45,983 bases of DNA from an uncultured bacterium (GTDB taxonomy: Bacteria > Patescibacteriota > Minisyncoccia > Phycocordibacterales > UBA918). The translations under genes and the position numbers were made by a program. Below the pieces are notes generated by a model, which saw only the letters and a program-made list of their open reading frames with translations, searched no databases and was not told where the DNA came from. Every line of letters starts with the position of its first letter. The first letter of the stretch is position 1. Of the stretch, positions 4,448 to 40,508 are shown in pieces. The stretch is taken from NCBI GenBank assembly GCA_913050645.1, contig CAJXAG010000001.1, forward strand, positions 1 through 45,983, read 5' to 3'.

Positions 4448-5779
4448 TTATGAAAATGTGAATAAAGAACGAAATCGCTTAAAGAGACCGTGCCACCAAA
4501 TACGTAGACGTTCCCAGAACGTCAACGTCGACTCAGACGACGCTACCTCCTGCCGTCGCTTTTCTTTTTCTGCGACTGCATGTTGTACCCTTAATTGTAA
4601 ATCACTTAAGGCATTCATAAAAGCGACATATGCATCATATGGGGATTCATACGGAGAGAAGTATGCATGCACGTCTCCGTCTTCGGACCACTTGGTACAC
4701 ATATAGTAGAAATGATCAGACGTTTGCAACTTTCGCCACGTTTCAATAATCTCCGGATCTTCTGTCGCCATCACATCACGTTCGATGCCGTAAATTGCCG
4801 CGATTGCATCTTTCTGGATATCATTCCCCGTCCATGCAGTCAGATCACGATCAGTATCAGCCCAGGTCATCACGTCAGGAACATCGATCTCTCCAACCGC
4901 ATCGTAGCTCAGCGCCGTTTCAGTCGCTGTTTTAAAGGTGGTGTCGGGATGTTCAGTCAACAAGTGCGGCAGCGTGCGCATAAAGTTGAAGATACCCGTA
5001 TCTTCCCACTGATGCTCCCCAAACGTTTCATAATCCATAAAGAGATTGATCGTTTGTCCATCGCCATGATGCGCATGGATCCAGTCAGTGTAAGTCTCTG
5101 CAGAAAGTGGAAAACTCTCCCATGCTTGATTACCAAACCGGAATGCCACATCATCAGACAACTTGTAATTTTTTAAGAGCACCTTTATCTTGCTACACCC
5201 TTGTGGGTTGTATACGTAGTTTGGACTGCGCCATCCAAGTACTGGGTCCCACCCTTCAGCCATGATCCCAATGTAGCCATTGTCTTCACACCACTTGGCC
5301 AGGTCATTTCGATATGAAAGTTCTGTGTTACGGAATACTTTTGGTGTGTACCCAAAGAGTTCATGAATGCGTTTTGCATGCTGCGCAACCTGTCGCTCAA
5401 ACTCCGGCACTGAGTAGAAAAATGCAAGTGAGTGGTGATAAGTGTCCGCGAGAATTTCCACGCGTCCCGACGCAACAAGTTTCTGAAAACTCTCCAGCAC
5501 ATCTGGTGCATACGCTTCAAACTGATCAAGCACCGTACCTGAGAATGAAAGTGAGAACTTAAACTCAGGATGCGTATCTAAAAGTTCTTGCAACACCGCG
5601 TTCATCGGTCGGTACGACTTCTCTGCAACTTTCTCAATGATTTTTCGGTTGTTCAAGTCTGTTTCTGACGCATCGTTGAAATATTCATTGTCATTTCCAA
5701 TGTCAAATACACGATACTTTTTTACCCGGTAGGGTTGGTGTACATGAAAATAGGGACAGACTGTTAACATAGCAAGCAA
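4448..5779 (-). CDS. glycoside hydrolase family 57 (alpha-amylase / branching-enzyme family)
   Basis: 443 aa. N-terminal FHVHQPYR block and overall layout are typical of GH57. It lies 4 nt downstream of the glycosyltransferase. Confidence 0.8.
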   Translation of the reverse strand: MLAMLTVCPYFHVHQPYRVKKYRVFDIGNDNEYFNDASETDLNNRKIIEKVAEKSYRPMNAVLQELLDTHPEFKFSLSFSGTVLDQFEAYAPDVLESFQKLVASGRVEILADTYHHSLAFFYSVPEFERQVAQHAKRIHELFGYTPKVFRNTELSYRNDLAKWCEDNGYIGIMAEGWDPVLGWRSPNYVYNPQGCSKIKVLLKNYKLSDDVAFRFGNQAWESFPLSAETYTDWIHAHHGDGQTINLFMDYETFGEHQWEDTGIFNFMRTLPHLLTEHPDTTFKTATETALSYDAVGEIDVPDVMTWADTDRDLTAWTGNDIQKDAIAAIYGIERDVMATEDPEIIETWRKLQTSDHFYYMCTKWSEDGDVHAYFSPYESPYDAYVAFMNALSDLQLRVQHAVAEKEKRRQEVASSESTLTFWERLRIWWHGLFKRFRSLFTFS

Positions 5780-5783
5780 GTAG

Positions 5784-6995
5784 TTACGTTACCCATTCTA
5801 TCAGATGGCGGTATAAATCGAGAACTTTACGCGCCACCCCTTTCCACGATAGCTGCGCGCTCTCCTTCTGTCCTTCTTTCACTAATTGTCCGTGCATTAC
5901 CGGATAACGCAATGCAGCAAGGATTTTATTTGCCATTTCTTCAACATCCCAAAAGTCTACCTTCAGGACATGTGTAATCACCTCAGCTACACCTGACTGT
6001 TTTGAAATAAGTGACGGTGCACCATGCTGAATCGCCTCAAGCGGTACCAATCCAAAAGGCTCAGAGACCGAGGGCATCACGACCAAGTCAACGCTTTGAT
6101 ACATCTGGTCACGTTCTTCATACCAAAGTGCCCCCGCAAACAACACGTGCTGAGAAAGCCCGAGTGCCCCTACCTGCTGCATGATCTGTCCAGTCATGTC
6201 TCCCTTTCCCGAAATAACAAAAACGACGTTTGGGTCATATGAAACAACCTTTTGGGCTGCCTGCACAAAATAATCAACACCTTTCTGAACTGTGATGCGT
6301 CCATGGTACAACACAATCTTCTTTCCTTGCGCACGTAACTCCTGCAAGGTTGGCTCATGTCGCTTCACTTCTTGCGTGTCGATACCGTTATGTACCACCG
6401 TAACTTTATCTGGGTTCACGTCATACTTTTGCGTCACGATGTCTTTTGTAAACTGACTGACGGCAACTACTTTGTCTGCGACAGCAAAAGATTCTTTTTC
6501 AATCTCGTATACTTGTGGATCAACATTTTCTCCAGCAGCCTGATCAAACGCTGTCGCATGCACATGGAGAATCAGCGGCTTTCCAGTGGCAATCTTTGCT
6601 GCAACACCAGCAAGATATGACGTCCAGTCGTGTGCATGGATGAGATCAAACTCTTCCTCCATAGCAATCTCTGCCGCCTTGTGCGCGTATGCATGCACCT
6701 CCTGCAGAAGCGTCCGGCTGTACAAATGATGCCGACCATACTCATCGTACACATCAATCATGGTTTGTGAGCCGGTGTAGGGCACCATTGCTGAGGGTAC
6801 CTCGCGAGTGCGTACCATTTTCTCTACATCAGCAAAAATAAAGCGAGAATGTCCATCGACAGCTTGCGACTTCGGCAACACAAAAATCACCTCGACACCA
6901 CTTTGTGCGAGTTCACGTGTAATGCCCTGGCATGCCATACCGAGGCCTCCAGTTGTGTGTGGCGGGAAATCCCAACCAAACGTAAGAACTTTCAT
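5784..6995 (-). CDS. GT-B glycosyltransferase, glycogen/starch-synthase-like (GT4/GT5)
   Basis: N-terminal KVLTFGWDFPPHTTGGLG (synthase-like GGL motif) and C-terminal SEPFGLVPLEAIQHG (E-x7-E region). ORF track starts at 7025; I prefer ATG 6995 (MKVLTF). Confidence 0.8.
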   Translation of the reverse strand: MKVLTFGWDFPPHTTGGLGMACQGITRELAQSGVEVIFVLPKSQAVDGHSRFIFADVEKMVRTREVPSAMVPYTGSQTMIDVYDEYGRHHLYSRTLLQEVHAYAHKAAEIAMEEEFDLIHAHDWTSYLAGVAAKIATGKPLILHVHATAFDQAAGENVDPQVYEIEKESFAVADKVVAVSQFTKDIVTQKYDVNPDKVTVVHNGIDTQEVKRHEPTLQELRAQGKKIVLYHGRITVQKGVDYFVQAAQKVVSYDPNVVFVISGKGDMTGQIMQQVGALGLSQHVLFAGALWYEERDQMYQSVDLVVMPSVSEPFGLVPLEAIQHGAPSLISKQSGVAEVITHVLKVDFWDVEEMANKILAALRYPVMHGQLVKEGQKESAQLSWKGVARKVLDLYRHLIEWVT

Positions 6996-7441: not shown

Positions 7442-7480
7442 ACAAAGACAACGGCGCCCTGTGGGCGCCGTTGTCTTTGT
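7442..7480 (+). terminator. rpmG terminator, 18-bp perfect stem
   Basis: acaaagacaacggcgccc-tgt-gggcgccgttgtctttgt. Confidence 0.65.
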
Positions 7481-7484
7481 CCAA

Positions 7485-7512
7485 AAAACCTTTCATTCGA
7501 ATGAAAGGTTTT
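7485..7512. repeat. perfect palindrome AAAACCTTTCATTC|GAATGAAAGGTTTT (copy 1)
   Basis: 28-nt perfect palindrome immediately after the rpmG terminator. Confidence 0.6.
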
Positions 7513-7513
7513 A

Positions 7514-7541
7514 TTGACTTCTCTCCCCCTTTTGCTACATT
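7514..7541 (+). promoter_or_regulatory. sigma-70-like promoter for 7577..7939
   Basis: TTGACT (7514-7519), 16-nt spacer, TACATT (7536-7541). Confidence 0.5.
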
Positions 7542-7576: not shown

Positions 7577-7939
7577 ATGCATATCGCAAGAGTCTCTTCA
7601 ACGACGTTCCGCTCGAGTCGTCAGTACAGGTTTCCGTACCGAATCTGGAACAAAGAAAGCGAAGCAAAGCCGATTCAAAAGCTCTGGGAAGACGTAGATC
7701 CCTATGGAGCTGGCCCACAAAACTTTCCTGACTGCTTTCCCAAAAATGGCTTCGATGTCAAAGAGCGTATGCTGGAACTACTCGGAAGTCTAGGGATGAA
7801 ACAAGCACACATTGCACATATGGACGTAAGTGCATACATACTTGAAGCAAGAGTCCTCAATGACCAAAGTAGAAACATTGAAAATTGGGACGCTTTTGAA
7901 GCACTGCTCGAAAGAACATTCTGCCTTGAAGTTCGGTAA
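7577..7939 (+). CDS. hypothetical protein
   Basis: 120-aa ORF. GAGGAG (7561-7566) lies 10 nt upstream, a TTGACT-16-TACATT promoter sits at 7514-7541, and a hairpin terminator sits at 7943-7970. No family recognised. Confidence 0.5.
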   Translation: MHIARVSSTTFRSSRQYRFPYRIWNKESEAKPIQKLWEDVDPYGAGPQNFPDCFPKNGFDVKERMLELLGSLGMKQAHIAHMDVSAYILEARVLNDQSRNIENWDAFEALLERTFCLEVR

Positions 7940-8039: not shown

Positions 8040-8073
8040 CACAAAACCTTTCATTCGAATGAAAGGTTTTGTG
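8040..8073. repeat. perfect palindrome CACAAAACCTTTCATTC|GAATGAAAGGTTTTGTG (copy 2)
   Basis: 34-nt perfect palindrome sharing its 28-nt core with 7485-7512. Confidence 0.6.
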
Positions 8074-8122
8074 TGTAACTAATTTCCTCAAATTACTATG
8101 AAATGCAAAGTAGCAATTGTGC

Positions 8123-8334
8123 AATAGAAGCGATTTGCTTGAGTGCAGTTCTAAGCGTAAAAAATAACGTAAAGCGTACTGATACGTACTGTGTGAGACA
8201 GTGTCTAAACACTGTCGCAGGACTCATTGAGATATTTTGAGGGACGAGAAATATCCAATGAGTGGACAACTTCTGTAAGAAGCGTTATTTTCTGCATTAC
8301 AACAAAGAAATGTGCCTAGAAAATCGCTTCTATT
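8123..8334 (-). repeat. gene-3'-end structured element, expanded copy (after fba)
   Basis: An outer 14-bp perfect helix pairs 8123-8136 with 8321-8334 and includes the fba TAG. The S1-like helix pairs aaaaataacg (8160-8169) with cgttatttt (8283-8291) and encloses three extra hairpins. A CAACAAAG motif lies at 8300-8307. Confidence 0.45.
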
Positions 8335-9355
8335 CCATACTCGGGTCATAAGTCCCCTGATCCGCCATACTATTGAGTTGCAATCGCTTGATAAGTGCCG
8401 CTTGTGCTGCCTCTATATTCTCATCTTTTCCTTGCCATGCTTCCTGCACCGGTTGCTCAAGCCCTCGTGAGAATGAAAACGCTAACTCCCATGGAAATCC
8501 ACCTTCCTGTGCCTCAAGCTCTGCAATCGCGTCTAAGTTCTCTGTCGCTCTCTGTGGTGTCTGTCCTCCTGAAAGAAAGACGATACCAGGAACTTCTGGG
8601 GGTACACTATTCATAAAGGTACGTAGTGTTGCCTGTGCAACGTCTGCAGCAGACGTCTGCTCACTCCACTCACTTCCTGCAAGCACCATACTCGACTTCA
8701 GAATCACCCCTTCCAGGTCAACGTTGTTCCACTGCAGCTGCTCAAATAGTTTCTGCAGCACCATAGTTGTCACCTCTTCAGCGCGCTCTAATGAATGACT
8801 ACCGCTGAAAAGGACTTCTGGCTCTACCATTGGCACAATCCCTGCTTCCTGACAAAGCGCTGCGTAACGCGCGAGTGTCATACAGTCAAAGAGAATATTT
8901 TGCTCAGTCGGCGTATTTTCTGAAATGGTAAACACAGCACGCCACTTTGCTGCTCGCGCACCCATGTCGTAATACTCTTGCAAACGATCAGCAAGACCAT
9001 CGAGCCCTTGGGTTACCACCTCACCTTCAAAGTTCGTGTGTGGGACTGTACTCTTGTCCACCTTAATGATTGGCACAACACCTTTAGCGATGAGCAGGTC
9101 AGAAAACTCGGTACCGTCGTCGGCATGGTTACGAATCGTGCCATCATGAAGAATAACTCCAGTGACATACTCTTGGAGACCTTCAGTGGTAAATAGAAGT
9201 TGCCGGTACTTTCGCCGAAGCTCAGCCTCGGGAGGTAACCCGAGTGCTTCTAATTGCTTATTCATAGTGCGCGGCGACTGGTCGGCCGCAAGAATTCCCT
9301 TATGTGGCGTTACCAGTGTCTTCGCCATCTCTCGGAGTTGTTCTGTGTTTGACAT
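8330..9355 (-). CDS. fba: fructose-bisphosphate aldolase, class I
   Basis: GILAADQSPRTMNKQL and overall similarity to class I (Schiff-base) aldolases. I prefer the start at MSNTEQ (9355) because the longer ORF (to 9382) would run into the 9370-9402 hairpin. Confidence 0.88.
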   Translation of the reverse strand: MSNTEQLREMAKTLVTPHKGILAADQSPRTMNKQLEALGLPPEAELRRKYRQLLFTTEGLQEYVTGVILHDGTIRNHADDGTEFSDLLIAKGVVPIIKVDKSTVPHTNFEGEVVTQGLDGLADRLQEYYDMGARAAKWRAVFTISENTPTEQNILFDCMTLARYAALCQEAGIVPMVEPEVLFSGSHSLERAEEVTTMVLQKLFEQLQWNNVDLEGVILKSSMVLAGSEWSEQTSAADVAQATLRTFMNSVPPEVPGIVFLSGGQTPQRATENLDAIAELEAQEGGFPWELAFSFSRGLEQPVQEAWQGKDENIEAAQAALIKRLQLNSMADQGTYDPSME

Positions 9356-9444: not shown

Positions 9445-9469
9445 ACAGGGGACATCCGATGTCCCCTGT
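9445..9469 (-). terminator. hairpin, ACAGGGGACAT stem family (copy 1)
   Basis: acaggggacat-ccg-atgtcccctgt. The same 11-bp stem recurs at 38491-38515. Confidence 0.55.
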
Positions 9470-9484
9470 TTCAGCACGCTAGGC

Positions 9485-10267
9485 CTAGTAGCGTATCTTC
9501 CAGCCAATACTAAACAAATACTTCACAAGACCCACCAAAAATACAGCTAGGCCAACAATCACTACAAGACCCACTTCACTATTTGCTTCAGAGTACCCGA
9601 TCATGCTGCTTCGGATACCATCAGCGAAGTAGAAGAAGGGGTTCAGGAGTGTAATTTTTGCAGCAAGCTCTGGCAAAAAGGTAATCGAGTAGAAGATACC
9701 GCCGAGATACGTCAGTGGTGTAATCACAAATGTATTCATCACCTGCAGCTGTTCGAAGCTCTCTGCCCAAAGCGCAACCAGCATCCCCAGCGAACCGAAT
9801 ATAGCAGCAATCGCAAGCACATAGAACACAAACATAATAGGATTCACCAACTGCACCGCACCAAAGAGTGACCCTACCCCCAGAATCAGAAATGCAACCA
9901 GAAGCGCTCGCCCAAGTGACTCAGAAAGCAGGCCGATGATCATCTCAGTGTATGATAGTGGCGCAATCAAAATCTCCTCGAGTCCTCTTCCCCAGCGCAG
10001 GAAATAGAGCGCTGAAGACGCGCTCGAGAACGATGCGTTAATGATCGCAAGCATCAAGATACCGGGAAACACAAACGATATGTACGGCACGCCGGCAAAA
10101 TCATCAATCTTCGTACCGATCACCGTCCCAAAGATAAAAATATACAACGCAGAAGACACCACTGGTGCAACGAGCGTCTGTATCGCTACCCGAAAGGTGC
10201 GCTTCATCCCTTTACGGAGGAATGTGTAAATTCCAATCCAATTAACTTTCATCATGTTTTCATTCAT
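9485..10267 (-). CDS. ABC-2 type transporter permease
   Basis: 260 aa with about six hydrophobic spans and ABC-2 exporter permease architecture. It lies downstream of the ATPase gene on the same strand. Confidence 0.8.
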   Translation of the reverse strand: MNENMMKVNWIGIYTFLRKGMKRTFRVAIQTLVAPVVSSALYIFIFGTVIGTKIDDFAGVPYISFVFPGILMLAIINASFSSASSALYFLRWGRGLEEILIAPLSYTEMIIGLLSESLGRALLVAFLILGVGSLFGAVQLVNPIMFVFYVLAIAAIFGSLGMLVALWAESFEQLQVMNTFVITPLTYLGGIFYSITFLPELAAKITLLNPFFYFADGIRSSMIGYSEANSEVGLVVIVGLAVFLVGLVKYLFSIGWKIRY

Positions 10268-10280
10268 AGTCCAATAATTT

Positions 10281-10404
10281 GATTAAAATTGATTTAAATG
10301 GGATGAGCTACGAGGAAGACAAGAAAAATAAATCGAGGTGTATGTTGGTATACAGTGAGATTTCTTTTTTACAGTCTGACAAAGTAGATCGATCATTTTA
10401 ATTA
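10281..10404 (-). repeat. gene-3'-end structured element (between ABC ATPase and permease genes)
   Basis: cgaggaagacaag-aaaaataaatc-gag-[tgtat/ataca hairpin]-tga-gatttcttttt-acagtctgacaaagtag. An imperfect outer helix includes the TAA stop at 10398-10400. Confidence 0.6.
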
Positions 10405-11153
10405 TTTTTTGCTTCGCGAGTAATCTCTAAGTATGTTTCTTCGACCGATTTTCCGTCTTTCATAAACTCTTCTTTTGTTCCTTGCGCAACAATCTTCCCT
10501 TTGTTAATAATCGCAATATGGTTACATAAGTACTGAATCTCCTCAAGATAGTGCGAGGTAAGAATGATCGTCTTCCCACGTTCATTCATTTCTTTAAGAT
10601 ATTCCCAAAGATCATGCCGTTGCTCCACATCTACTCCAGCAGTCGGCTCATCGAGAATCAACAGGTCAGGTGTATGAATGAGCGCGCGGGCAAGAATTGC
10701 TCGTCGCTTCAGACCCCCGGAAAGCTTCTGAAAGCTGGTATCCTTGTGCTCATTGAGATCAAATCGATCAAGTAGTTCAGCACCTCGTTTTCTTCGCACC
10801 GCAGCCGAAATACCATAAAACCCACCCATGAAGTCAATAAGCTGCGAAGGGGTTGCAAATATATCAACATTGAACTCCTGTGGTGAGAGCCCTACCTTCA
10901 ATCGCGCTTGCTTGTAGTCTTTGACTACATCGAGTCCATCAATAGTAATTGACCCTTCGGTTGGTTGTGCAATACCCGTTATACAGTGAATGGTTGTACT
11001 TTTTCCTGCACCGTTTGGACCCAACAGACCATAAAAACTCCCTTTGGGTATAGACAGCGATACACCATCTACCGCACGCTTTGCACTCTTCCCTTTTCCG
11101 TAGACTTTTACCAAGTCTTTTATTTCAAGCATTACATCAGTCATGGGTACCAT
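10398..11153 (-). CDS. ABC transporter ATP-binding protein
   Basis: Walker A GPNGAGKST, signature LSGGLKRR, Walker B LLILDEPT. The start could instead be at 11144 or 11132. Confidence 0.9.
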   Translation of the reverse strand: MVPMTDVMLEIKDLVKVYGKGKSAKRAVDGVSLSIPKGSFYGLLGPNGAGKSTTIHCITGIAQPTEGSITIDGLDVVKDYKQARLKVGLSPQEFNVDIFATPSQLIDFMGGFYGISAAVRRKRGAELLDRFDLNEHKDTSFQKLSGGLKRRAILARALIHTPDLLILDEPTAGVDVEQRHDLWEYLKEMNERGKTIILTSHYLEEIQYLCNHIAIINKGKIVAQGTKEEFMKDGKSVEETYLEITREAKNN

Positions 11154-11872: not shown

Positions 11873-12766
11873 ATGGACGAAGAAGAAAAGTGGTTGCTGG
11901 AGGAGAAATACAGTGGCACGGAAAGCTTCGCTTTCCGTGCAGATTTAGAACTGCTCAAAAACGGCACTCCTCTCGCCTACCTCATTGGATCAATCCCCTT
12001 TTTAGACTGCACCATTCACCTCGACTCACACCCACTGATCCCACGTTCTGAAACCGAATTCTGGACCGAGCAAGCTATCAAGGTCATTCGAAATTTCGAG
12101 CGTACGTACGAACGTACGTACGACCATAACTCCCCCCAAGGCAGCCCTAGGGAACTCCCCGGACAAAACCCGAGGCCCGGCCTAGGGCTGGCCCTAGGCC
12201 GGGCCTCGGGAGAAGTTCATGTCCTGGATCTGTGTGCGGGCTCAGGAGCAATCGGTGTCGCCGTCGCCAAAGCGATCCCACAAGCACAGGTCGATTTTGC
12301 AGAAATTGACCCAGCTCACCTCCCTACCATCGAAAAAAACATCGAACACAACCTCAAACCGACATGTCGGAGGTCTAACCTCCAACATGGGCAATGTCGT
12401 GTGATTGAAAGCAATCTCTTTACGCCGAGTGCAGGGTTAAACCGCGAACTTGGGAAATATGACTTTATTCTCACTAACCCGCCCTATATTGATCCTGCAA
12501 TCGACCGTACTGAAACTTCCGTAAAGCTGCACGAGCCACACCTTGCGCTGTATGGCGGAGCTGAAGGTATGGAATGTATTGCAAAAATCATAGCAGAAGC
12601 ACCGAAACATCTCACGTTACATGGTCAACTCTGGATCGAACACGAACCTGAGCAGGTAGATGCAATTACTGCTCTTGCTGCAGAAAATGATTTGTTTAGC
12701 ACGACTCACAACGACCAGTACAACACACCTCGCTATAGTGTTGTAACGCGCACTGTGGCAGAATAA
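11873..12766 (+). CDS. prmC: release factor glutamine N5-methyltransferase PrmC (HemK) with ~35-aa palindrome-encoded insertion
   Basis: SAM motif VLDLCAGSGAIG and catalytic LTNPPYI. The segment FERTYERTYDHNSPQGSPRELPGQNPRPGLGLALGRASGE lies where E. coli PrmC has only about 6 residues. Confidence 0.85.
   Translation: MDEEEKWLLEEKYSGTESFAFRADLELLKNGTPLAYLIGSIPFLDCTIHLDSHPLIPRSETEFWTEQAIKVIRNFERTYERTYDHNSPQGSPRELPGQNPRPGLGLALGRASGEVHVLDLCAGSGAIGVAVAKAIPQAQVDFAEIDPAHLPTIEKNIEHNLKPTCRRSNLQHGQCRVIESNLFTPSAGLNRELGKYDFILTNPPYIDPAIDRTETSVKLHEPHLALYGGAEGMECIAKIIAEAPKHLTLHGQLWIEHEPEQVDAITALAAENDLFSTTHNDQYNTPRYSVVTRTVAE
12101..12122. repeat. intragenic palindrome CGTACGTACG-AA-CGTACGTACG (in prmC)
   Basis: Self-complementary 22-mer, read in frame as RTYERTY. 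Confidence 0.8.
12169..12210. repeat. intragenic GC-rich 42-nt perfect palindrome (in prmC)
   Basis: cccgaggcccggcctagggc-tg-gccctaggccgggcctcggg, read in frame as PRPGLGLALGRASG. Its composition is far more GC-rich than the surrounding gene. Confidence 0.8.
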
Positions 12767-16115: not shown

Positions 16116-16245
16116 CGTGTTCGGTTAAAATTGGATGAAGTACAAGGCACGCAAAGCAAATGACGCCGAGCCTTACTTTACTGTAAGGTGAGCGCTCATT
16201 TGTCTGCAGCGTAACGCAGTAGTTCGCCAATTTTAACCGAACACG
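16116..16245 (-). repeat. gene-3'-end structured element (after uppP)
   Basis: A 19-bp perfect outer helix pairs 16116-16134 with 16227-16245 and covers the last uppP codons plus the stop. S1 is caaatgacgc/gcgctcatttg and S2 is ccttac/gtaagg, with GAG and TGA linkers. Confidence 0.6.
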
Positions 16246-25144: not shown

Positions 25145-25170
25145 AATTTAGTCCCCTACATTGTACCAAA

Positions 25171-25209
25171 TACAAAAGCACGGAAAGCGAAGCTTTCCGT
25201 GCTTTTGTA
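25171..25209 (-). terminator. 18-bp hairpin, ACAAAAGCACGG stem family (copy 1), end of dnaG-rpoD unit
   Basis: tacaaaagcacggaaagc-gaa-gctttccgtgcttttgta. Confidence 0.6.
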
Positions 25210-25229
25210 TAAAACTCAATCTTCCTTTA

Positions 25230-25446
25230 CTCAAATCCTGCTACCGAGATGAGATACGCTGCGTGAGAAAGTACTCAACGTACTTTCGCAAGAGGTTGTC
25301 TATGATTCTGAAGTCATGAAGAATCATGGCAACCTAAACAGCTTCAGTAAGAAGCAAGAAAAATTGCCGGAGCCGTACTTAGTGGTACGGTGACCGGCAA
25401 TTTTTTGCAGTCCAACAAAGTAGCTCGCTCGTTAGTAGGATTTGAG
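25230..25446 (-). repeat. gene-3'-end structured element, extended copy (after rpoD)
   Basis: Core at 25351-25423 (gaagcaag-aaaaattgccgg-ag-[ccgtac/gtacgg]-tga-ccggcaattttt-gcagtccaacaaagtag), plus two extra hairpins (25267-25287, 25302-25327). The outer helix pairs 25230-25243 with 25433-25446 and overlaps the rpoD stop codon. Confidence 0.6.
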
Positions 25447-30243: not shown

Positions 30244-30287
30244 AAACACAAAAGCACGGCGCCTAAAGGCGCCGTGCTTTTGTGTTT
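30244..30287 (-). terminator. 20-bp hairpin, ACAAAAGCACGG stem family (copy 2), end of rpoBC unit
   Basis: aaacacaaaagcacggcgcc-taaa-ggcgccgtgcttttgtgttt. Confidence 0.6.
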
Positions 30288-30313: not shown

Positions 30314-30426
30314 AGAAACTGAATAAGTTGCCTGAGATACGAAACAGACAAGAAAAAAGACCCGAGCGGTACTAAGGTGTACCGTGAGGGTCTTTTTTCG
30401 TAGTCTAATGAAGTAGATTAGGTGAA

Positions 30427-30439
<13 letters not shown>
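30314..30439 (-). repeat. gene-3'-end structured element (after rpoC)
   Basis: gaaacagacaag-aaaaaagaccc-gag-[cggtac/gtaccg]-tga-gggtctttttt-cgtagtctaatgaagtag. The outer 13-bp perfect helix pairs 30314-30326 with 30427-30439 and includes the rpoC TAA. Confidence 0.65.
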
Positions 30440-34113
<3,674 letters not shown>

Positions 34114-38490: not shown

Positions 38491-38515
38491 ACAGGGGACA
38501 TTGAATGTCCCCTGT
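38491..38515. terminator. hairpin, ACAGGGGACAT stem family (copy 2), between convergent genes
   Basis: acaggggacat-tga-atgtcccctgt. The stem is identical to 9445-9469. Confidence 0.55.
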
Positions 38516-39968: not shown

Positions 39969-40010
39969 ATAGAAAAAACACAAACTAAAAAATGTTTGTG
40001 CTTTTTCTAT
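39969..40010 (-). terminator. 17-position hairpin downstream of the khpA 3' element
   Basis: atagaaaaaacacaaac / gtttgtgctttttctat. The single A:C mismatch on the plus strand becomes a U:G wobble in minus-strand RNA. Confidence 0.5.
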
Positions 40011-40021
40011 TTTGATAATTT

Positions 40022-40141
40022 GAGAATTTAAAATTAAATGAAGTTCGAGGAAGACAAGAAAATTAATTCGAGACGTACTTAACGTACGATGAGAATTAAT
40101 TTATCGTAGTCTGACAAAGAAATTCGTTAATTTTATTTCTC
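40022..40141 (-). repeat. gene-3'-end structured element (after khpA)
   Basis: cgaggaagacaag-aaattaattc-gag-[cgtac/gtacg]-atga-gaattaattt-atcgtagtctgacaaag. The outer helix has two segments (40022-40037 / 40127-40141) and ends 8 nt from the khpA stop. Confidence 0.6.
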
Positions 40142-40148
40142 AAACGAT

Positions 40149-40508
40149 TTAAATTTTCAGGTCGTCGATGGCCTGATCGAGGTCCTTAGGCTCTGCTGAA
40201 ACTTCCGCCCCTGCGTTATCATCCATTGTCTCTTCTGTTGTATCTGCAGTCATAACGCGACCACCTTCTGGCTCGTTAATCTTCAGATTTACCCGTGCAT
40301 CGTGCTTCATACCCACTACGCGAAGAAGTGTACGAATAGCTTTTGCGGTGTTTCCACTTCGGCCAATAATCTTCCCCATGTCTTCTGCATGGACGTCGAG
40401 TGTCAGTAGGACACCCATTTCATCTACCGTACGGTCAATCTTTACACTGTCAGGATGATCTACGAGAGATTTTACTACTGTTTCTAGAAATTGCTGATCT
40501 TCATGCAT
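40149..40508 (-). CDS. khpA: KH-domain RNA-binding protein (KhpA/YlqC-like) with acidic C-tail
   Basis: MGKIIGRSGNTAKAIRTLL carries the GxxG KH loop. The position directly after rpsP matches the Gram-positive rpsP-ylqC arrangement. Confidence 0.75.
   Translation of the reverse strand: MHEDQQFLETVVKSLVDHPDSVKIDRTVDEMGVLLTLDVHAEDMGKIIGRSGNTAKAIRTLLRVVGMKHDARVNLKINEPEGGRVMTADTTEETMDDNAGAEVSAEPKDLDQAIDDLKI

Follow-up and report, generated by a model that had tools for sequence, protein, structure and literature searches.

Why should a long palindrome end precisely on the stop codon of a gene for RNA polymerase? The question is raised by positions 30314 to 30439 of contig CAJXAG010000001.1 (assembly GCA_913050645.1), a 45,983-nucleotide stretch from an uncultured bacterium, analyzed in full and called the window here. 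The organism is of the Paceibacteria type within the Patescibacteria, and the best identity obtained for its RpoC C-terminus is 85%. The initial annotation grouped this palindrome, which follows rpoC, with five others that follow fba, uppP, rpoD, khpA, and an ABC ATPase gene, and took the changes in their stems to argue for selection on a folded RNA or DNA cruciform. The six loci are copies of a palindromic repeat of about 125 bases, whose family is widespread, was previously uncatalogued, and is defined by its shape and a few purine-rich loops rather than by the sequence of its stems. The best-folding, selected strand is the antisense (template) strand of the abutting gene, and in its behavior the family is closer to a small piece of mobile DNA than to an RNA dedicated to regulation.

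Structure of the rpoC copy

The plus strand of the rpoC copy folds into a single rod of closing helix, outer helices, stem S1, a 3x3 loop, and stem S2. Its minimum free energy (MFE) is −65.2 kcal/mol (z = −11 against shuffled sequences), compared with −50.0 kcal/mol for the minus strand. From the outside inward, the rod comprises a closing helix of 13 bp, a helix of 8 bp that includes G·U pairs, the short pairings UAC/GUA and AGAC/GUCU, S1, the GAG/UGA 3x3 loop, and S2 with its 6-nt loop. The closing helix, P1, is perfect, as the initial annotation had reported, and takes in the TAA. Its proximal arm (30427–30439, plus strand) is the antisense of the rpoC codons for ..E-T-E plus the stop, the translation ending in ..EVTEETE*, and its distal, non-coding arm (30314–30326, plus strand) is a sense copy of those final codons and the stop. 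The stop codon itself occupies 30427–30429 on the minus strand, where the rpoC open reading frame (ORF) spans 30427–34113.

Inside P1, the 5' strands of the outer helices and the purine-rich loops (..CUGAGAUAC-GAAAC-AGAC) lie at 30328–30349 on the plus strand and pair with 30403–30425 in the MFE fold; the family consensus over this region is gaugaaaugCGAGGcGcacaAG. The core, at 30352–30399 on the same strand, contains S1 (GAAAAAAGACCC/GGGUCUUUUUUC), the GAG/UGA loop, and hairpin S2 (GCGGUAC/GUACCGU), and is delineated by inverted repeat I12, the MFE fold, and the pair statistics. The 3' strands of the outer helices (30400–30425, plus strand) carry a conserved CG-N-AG..CAACAAAG-like block, which reads GUAGUCUAAUGAAGUAG after rpoC.

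A family defined by shape

Two covariance models define the family. R1 was built from five window copies (rpoC, ABC, uppP, rpoD, and khpA), while R2 was built solely from copies in other genomes and contains no window copy. R1 recovers its own five at 64–118 bits. R2 recovers all six window loci and nothing else on either strand, the next matches being ordinary terminators at 17.6 bits or less, which bears out the proposals that the six form one family and that no plus-strand gene in the window is followed by an equivalent. Related Paceibacteria, Nitrospira, and two viral contigs supplied more than 170 further copies. R1 detects 64 copies in the 80 rpoC loci of relatives (L001–L080). In a metagenome sample drawn by a pattern scan of contigs, R1 detects 82 copies in 100 loci and R2 another 23 in 20 other loci, while a first pattern scan of viral loci was too loose and yielded one true copy among 120 loci. 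The density in the sampled loci is about one copy per 7 kb. Elements range from 121 to 217 nt, with a short form of about 125 nt and long forms of about 175–215 nt.

The stems of these copies vary freely while their pairing persists. Mean identity between unrelated copies is about 48%, and the paired fraction is 90.6% and 90.0% in two independent samples, against a baseline of 31–43% when pairing partners are slid along the alignment. Changes on both sides of a pair occur in 37 and 36 of the 38 pairs, respectively. Because the alignments were fitted to the model, these percentages lean toward structure, but the margin is nonetheless very large. The covariation claimed for the nested helices around conserved linkers is thereby confirmed. 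S1, the GAG/TGA linkers, and S2 are also as they had been described in the rpoC, ABC, uppP, rpoD, and khpA copies. The flanking motifs fare worse: CAGTCTGACAAAGTAG is exact in one copy only, the others departing from it at two to three or more positions, and GAAGACAAG by itself does not exceed chance. Similarly, the A-run and T-run around S1 are present in the window copies and become a mere tendency in relatives, where most outer S1 pairs have their A in the 5' strand and their U in the 3' strand and the U-run is often missing.

The family matches nothing catalogued. Rfam 15 gives zero matches across the window at gathering thresholds, and scans of the rpoC, rpoD, and fba copies by E-value return sub-threshold noise, in agreement with the earlier view that no known RNA family is involved; a literature search found no description of such an element. 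Self-cleaving ribozymes (hammerhead, hairpin, twister-sister, hatchet, and pistol) were rejected, as there is no Rfam match and the suggestive CUGAGA..CGAAAC of the rpoC copy and AGUC of some others are not conserved in the family. A likeness to hammerhead, hairpin ribozyme, or group II domain 5 (GAGCCGUAC..GUACGG) was also discarded, the motifs being either not conserved or not paired as those families require. No conserved ORF lies within the element. A small peptide starting at the ATG of GGATGAG in the 5' loop was dismissed since neither start codon nor frame is conserved. On the gene-sense strand, one frame is usually open across the whole element (median longest 122 nt, against 72 nt on the structured strand, in alignments A3 and A4), a difference that the composition of the pyrimidine-rich loops probably explains.

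Might these simply be intrinsic terminators, or hairpins that resemble one another by chance? The A-run, S1/S2, and T-run of the window copies do resemble a bidirectional terminator, yet true copies score 34–118 bits where real terminators stay below the ceiling given above, conserved loops and outer helices covary, and separate canonical terminators follow the elements. Model scores and covariation refute this explanation, and hardly any credence is left to it. The initial annotation was thus right to set the element apart from ordinary terminators, because canonical ones sit just past most copies. Bidirectional terminators lie 20–40 nt past four of the six window copies. The one beyond the rpoC copy, at 30244–30287 and outside the element, has a 21-bp perfect stem (I3) between an A-run and a T-run, and the same layout recurs at 25170–25210, 39969–40010, and 8040–8073.

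These terminators recycle a few stems. The stem AAACCTTTCATTC/GAATGAAAGGTTT is shared by 8040–8073 and 7479–7518 and is found in other species too (L005 and L020), ACAGGGGACAT../..ATGTCCCCTGT by 38491–38515 and 9445–9469, and AAAGCACGG... by 25170–25210, 11916–11940, and 30244–30287. They may constitute a second, simpler repeat family. Two further palindromes, a perfect GC-rich one of 20+20 nt and one rich in GTAC, are located at 12169–12210 and 12088–12123 within the plus-strand ORF 11873–12766, an unusual feature for a coding region.

Copies in the window

All six window copies have their structured strand on the plus strand, and Pfam confirms the proposed gene identities (class I Fba, ABC ATPase, UppP/BacA, RpoD, and KhpA; 10 window proteins were scanned). 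The rpoC copy is a short form that scores 117.9 bits with R1 and 99.7 bits with R2. The khpA copy (40019–40144; R1 116 bits, R2 108.5 bits) is also short, as are the copies after the ABC ATPase gene (10284–10410; R1 115.5 bits, R2 97 bits; stop codon at 10398–10400) and uppP (16116–16245; R1 112.2 bits, R2 86.7 bits; inverted repeat I9; stop codon at 16233–16235). The ABC copy is intercistronic: the start codon of the ABC-2 permease gene, assigned like its neighbor by Pfam, lies at 10267, about 17 nt away. The uppP closing helix is a perfect 19 bp and takes in the codons for ..V-F-G plus TAA.

The single common architecture proposed for the six holds for the core, while the rpoD and fba copies owe their long form to an additional module of about 90 nt. 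This module consists of three hairpins, arranged as GUGAG-hairpin-CGCA, a long hairpin, and CUUC-NNUAA-GAAG, and its point of insertion differs between the two copies. After rpoD (25230–25446; inverted repeat I17; core match at 25318–25444 with R1 and R2) it sits at about 25263–25354, between P2 and S1. This copy folds at −108.3 kcal/mol against −87.2 kcal/mol on the other strand, and its closing helix spans the L-K-S-Y codons plus TAA. In the divergent fba copy (8120–8337; inverted repeat I14; R2 33.9 bits, E ~1e-6, at 8124–8331; stop codon at 8330–8332), the same kind of module is placed after S2-UGAG, within S1.

Docking on the stop codon likewise holds in general, with the khpA copy as the departure: the stop at 40149–40151 lies 5–8 nt past the helix. 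Just beyond this stop, the proximal arm resembles a second, degenerate khpA gene end. KhpA itself (40149–40508, minus strand) is a 119-residue protein, with a KH domain at residues 5–77 and an acidic tail of about 40 residues ending in the clade-conserved DDLKI.

The folded strand is antisense to the gene

Which strand does selection act upon? In relatives, all 60 copies compared are more stable on the structured strand than on its complement, with means of −49.7 and −35.4 kcal/mol, and the same is true of all six window copies, where the structured strand is also richer in G·U pairs (27 versus 9). A pair that is G·U on one strand is A·C on the other, and the two readings occur 229 and 37 times in the first sample and 241 and 50 times in the second. 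The excess persists at about 3:1 after three conserved G·U columns are removed, and the conserved loops are purine-rich on this same strand. Mutation bias does not account for the pattern, since GC skew stays at about −0.05 to −0.10 along the whole plus strand of the window; with the structured strand thus poor in G and rich in C, the bias runs the wrong way. The selected fold is therefore antisense to the abutting genes and is not a 3' untranslated region (UTR) RNA of those genes, which was one of the possibilities raised in the initial annotation.

Nor is there a sign that the structured strand is transcribed on its own account. Neither −10 nor −35 elements are enriched at any fixed distance upstream of it in 138 copies, and scans of the window reveal no promoter there. 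The mRNA is therefore the one transcript to be expected, and what it contains is the weaker complement. Placed ahead of the ordinary terminator, this complement still forms a hairpin of about −35 kcal/mol, in the 3' UTR or between cistrons, in which the stop codon is enclosed. Such a hairpin must presumably have at least a passive role, and consequences for 3'-end stability, operon polarity, and termination would be likely.

The same evidence bears on the idea that the copies are independent cis-antisense small RNA genes, each with its own promoter on the structured strand and a product that pairs with the mRNA at its 3' end and stop codon. This strand does look like a real structured RNA in its fold, its G·U pattern, and its purine-rich loops, among them the tandem G·A-type GAG/UGA loop, and the 3' arm is complementary to the stop region of the message. 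Such genes would, however, lack promoters as well as a terminator past the 3' arm, a bidirectional terminator often lies immediately upstream of them, and the same strand stays folded in copies that are oriented in the sense direction. This explanation is accordingly given little credit.

Position and polarity at gene ends

Among 153 copies, 120 have an opposite-strand ORF of at least 70 codons whose stop is no more than 25 nt from the element's 3' end, while 5 are related to ORFs in the sense direction only. At least two bases of the stop codon are paired in the closing helix in 78 of 119 antisense-abutting copies, together with a median of 10 coding nucleotides upstream of the stop in the 119. 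The genes concerned are diverse, unrelated, and for the most part housekeeping genes, and include those for S7, L10, AtpE, DnaB, PheS, PilB/C, SSB, RNase J, NusG, FtsA, MreB, SecY, TsaD, and MurJ. The restriction to gene 3' ends holds in the window; elsewhere a few copies in sense orientation occupy the spacers between rplL and rpoB and between dnaG and rpoD, or lie upstream of a rhodanese gene in Nitrospira, with the folded strand unchanged. About half of the copies precede a canonical terminator in the sense of the gene, at a median distance of 31 nt, and the remainder are intercistronic. The C-terminal tails of RpoC differ in length and sequence among species (L001–L080), and some run a few codons into the closing helix, as in L054, which ends in ..NRAS* where relatives end in ..NR*.

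Several simple causes of the fixed orientation were considered and set aside. Antisense and sense copies stand at 62:2 and 6:1 on the two replication strands; because the antisense relation holds in both skew classes, polarity follows the gene and not the replication fork. Donation of a stop codon is no explanation either, as early stops are less frequent on the gene-sense strand than on the opposite one. Avoidance of a strong terminator within operons was rejected by inference, the counts not having been cross-tabulated, since about half of the copies precede a canonical terminator and yet sense-only copies remain so few.

A structure at the end of genes calls to mind a cis-acting RNA device of the host. 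It could be a direction-selective terminator or insulator against polymerases entering from downstream, in which case the antisense RNA would receive the strong fold, or a stabilizer in the 3' UTR or intercistronic mRNA combined with a helix for translational coupling. Copies follow well-expressed genes and occupy classic junctions of differential expression (rpsG, rplJ, atpE, nusG, and the ABC ATPase-permease pair), their polarity tracks gene direction, the A and U bias of the outer S1 pairs is terminator-like, and the structure of each copy is kept over time. A terminating ribosome must open the closing helix, since the stop codon is enclosed in it. On the other hand, the mRNA strand has A·C where the opposite strand has G·U, at about 5–6 to 1, which is wrong for a selected mRNA fold. 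An antisense terminator needs only S1/S2 and U's, not covarying outer helices and loops beyond a U-run that many relatives lack, and half of the copies are already preceded on the structured strand by a canonical bidirectional terminator. In addition, the element splits overlapping, coupled genes in Nitrospira and ranges over phages and two phyla. A host device is, on this balance, an unlikely explanation, albeit one to be taken seriously.

Antisense folding at a stop codon also recalls integron attC sites, structure-specific single-strand recombination sites acted upon by a tyrosine recombinase. The geometry matches that of attC bottom strands: a fold-defined site whose folded strand is antisense to the ORF and overlaps its stop, with variable sequence, a conserved shape with unpaired bases, and an apex that may be variable or branched, as in the long forms. 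However, neither the consensus nor individual copies have RYYYAAC/GTTRRRY (R''/R') core sites at the helix base, the elements follow syntenic housekeeping genes scattered over 46 kb instead of forming cassette arrays, no integrase lies nearby in the window, and far more internal sequence is conserved than in attC. A site analogous to attC is thus very unlikely, about as much so as antisense RNA genes.

Filled and empty sites

Comparison of species shows sites with and without the element. Some species carry it at the rpoC, rpoD, and khpA sites, and in others these sites are empty; the gene ends are native, the RpoD end ..RLKSY* and the KhpA end ..DDLKI* being conserved as well. Two layouts result: stop codon, 10–40 nt, and terminator, or stop codon, element, spacer, and terminator. 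The non-coding arm of the closing helix mirrors the species-specific synonymous codons of the gene end, while cores are common to different sites of one genome, at up to 74% identity. Copies also occur in arrays, namely a tandem triple in L031 (1610–1988), in which each member has its own khpA-end-like sequence in the proximal arm, a tandem pair in L274 (630–880), and a head-to-head pair in L224 (5014–5269).

Nitrospira copies lie in L307 (6427–6551, 7769–7891, 8852–8974, 10432–10622, and 13533–13705) and L327 (4486–4609, 4781–4905, and 15194–15319). L307 encodes an HDAC-like protein 90–95% identical to proteins named Nitrospira or Nitrospiraceae, and L327 is from assembly GCA_002869885.2, which carries a homologue named Nitrospira sp. 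CG24C. These copies are GC-rich (56–60% GC) and sit antisense at stop codons as elsewhere. In this subfamily S1 varies freely and nearly all else is fixed, including terminal inverted repeats (GCAGGATGCTCAAAAAG../..CTTTTTCAGCATCCTGC). The repeats are partly conserved in one Paceibacteria clade (GGTTTCAAAACG), and in the window the closing helix matches each copy's own gene end and no common terminal repeat exists. Throughout the sampled loci, the terminal repeats are always about 108–190 nt apart and never surround an ORF. Of 15 Nitrospira-type copies, 12 have CTA/TTA at the 3' end of the structured strand only, where the gene strand reads TAG/TAA.

Two arrangements in Nitrospira are among the signs of copying or movement. 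In one, the order is RelA, element, a 49-residue duplicate of the RelA end, and a second element. In the other, the element splits the genes for the HDAC-like protein and a cytochrome, which overlap by ATGA in a related genome; past the element, a degenerate duplicate of the gene end, of about 8 to about 80 nt, keeps the downstream start.

The viral copies lie at 5746–5875 (minus strand) of L132 and 7590–7714 (plus strand) of L324. One comes directly after the gene for a P22-like portal protein, antisense to it as usual, in a locus of 62% GC where the copy has 60%; the portal protein is only about 33% identical to those of known phages. The other viral contig carries a ParB-methylase and a serine recombinase. 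A BLAST search of a Nitrospira-type copy against plasmid and phage collections gave no match.

A proposed structure-recognized mobile repeat

[quoted passage not shown] This reading has about an even chance of being correct. It is favored because the strand-specific fold is independent of the direction of transcription and lacks a promoter, and because the flank is asymmetric without target duplication. It is favored further because sites are filled or empty, one lineage has terminal repeats, phages carry copies, and the range covers two phyla. The initial annotation had named target-site duplications at non-orthologous positions in close relatives as the mark of a recent MITE. That test comes true in part, through the filled and empty sites, the Nitrospira terminal repeats, and the tandem and phage copies, with no clean target-site duplication among them.

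In the proposed mechanism, the element would spread as a folded single strand recognized by an enzyme in trans, a process closer to single-stranded DNA (HUH-type) transposition or structure-specific recombination than to cut-and-paste. Insertion would occur in one orientation beside a TA, and in Nitrospira the first G of the element would restore a TAG stop. In compact genomes, the stop codon may be the sole TA(R) site where insertion spares both the ORF and the downstream signals, which would explain docking and fixed polarity without invoking function. Template switching at quasi-palindromes is a known mutational mechanism, and fold-back switching of this type would best explain how the closing helix came to extend into the coding end after insertion. 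If only changes in the non-coding arm survive, that arm would come to mirror the last codons.

Several observations weigh against mobility. No transposase or partner enzyme was found, no search aimed at such enzymes being possible. Direct target-site duplications are absent at the 15 Nitrospira-type copies and none was seen at the window copies, and the TA|R reading rests on these 15 copies, which are partly related. A classic TA duplication of the IS630/Tc1 type was rejected because just one side carries the TA. This TA is found 3' of the folded strand, whereas IS608 and other known HUH elements have their target motif 5' of it. In the window no two copies are nearly identical and their closing helices differ, so that nothing shows recent movement in this genome. 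Individual copies are also constrained. Among copies 70–93% identical, mostly at the same site across species, 76 compensatory and 46 pair-keeping differences stand against 44 that break pairs, and paired columns change less than unpaired ones. Long-term constraint of this kind fits a host function at least as well as selfish spread. Pair maintenance within each copy could reflect selection for such a function or arm-to-arm copying within a DNA palindrome, and much of the covariation that had been ascribed to selection on RNA could have the latter source.

Relation to known repeats

Long-hairpin MITEs are well represented in bacteria by ERIC/IRU (about 127 bp), the Neisseria Correia/NEMIS elements, RUP, and enterobacterial RU-1/2/3. 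Like MITEs, whose general definition is available (PMC3184786), the element is an inverted-repeat rod of less than about 400 bp, mostly 100–200 bp, without ORF or transposase gene. It has many copies in transcribed intergenic DNA near gene ends, is present or absent among relatives, and in its Nitrospira copies has conserved terminal inverted repeats. It falls outside the classic definition because it lacks target-site duplication, its flank signature being one-sided. Unlike MITEs, it varies in its stems while its loops are fixed, the terminal helices differ between window copies, and it is strictly oriented to the gene, with the stop codon in the helix, across two phyla and phages.

The comparison with repetitive extragenic palindromic (REP) sequences is equally instructive. 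REPs are 20–40 nt long, carry a conserved GTAG or CGTC tag, and show high identity from copy to copy. The element shares with REP/BIME sequences, REPINs (mobilized by RAYT, of the HUH Y1 type), and IS200/IS605-derived palindromes a strand-specific imperfect hairpin, the lack of target duplication, and an asymmetric short flank motif. It is likewise found at 3' ends and inside operons, in head-to-head and tandem arrangements (L224, L031, and L274), and persists vertically for long periods. In contrast, it forms a multi-loop rod of 125 nt whose stems are unconstrained, the GUAG of window copies gives way to GCAG or GAAA elsewhere, and the TA flank is 3' of the folded strand rather than 5'. Neither RAYT nor TnpA is among the 10 window proteins scanned. 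REPs are known to affect mRNA stability and to bind gyrase or IHF (PMC3184786).

With bidirectional intrinsic terminators the element shares, in many AT-rich copies, a GC-cored S1/S2 hairpin between an A-tract and a U-tract. It differs in adding conserved loops and three outer helices, in not conserving the U-tract, and in usually having a separate canonical terminator after it.

Implications

The combination of a fold on the untranscribed strand, fixed polarity, a helix that follows the end of the coding sequence, and the absence of target duplication matches no repeat class described so far, and a mechanism of insertion not yet described may lie behind it. A bolder proposal, advanced here only tentatively and unlikely on present evidence, is that of a new class of structure-guided elements. 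Folded as single strands, these would land in one orientation between the TA and the third base of the stop codon, restore the stop, and copy the gene end into the closing helix; or the family might be a domesticated antisense-strand RNA/DNA device that marks and insulates gene 3' boundaries in streamlined genomes across phyla. The family also offers a caution for the discovery of RNA motifs, as strong covariation by itself is no proof of a functional RNA.

If the sampled density holds genome-wide, the element would make up about 1–2% of a 1-Mb Paceibacteria genome, with copies at the stops of such core genes as rpoC, rpoD, ribosomal protein genes, atpE, secY, and dnaB. Messages that carry it would end in a strong hairpin that buries the stop, and their 3'-end stability, operon polarity, and termination would therefore have to be affected, in organisms with very few regulators. 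Since Nitrospira is culturable, the question is open to experiment. Common to Patescibacteria, Nitrospira, and phages, the family is therefore also a marker of gene flow among them.

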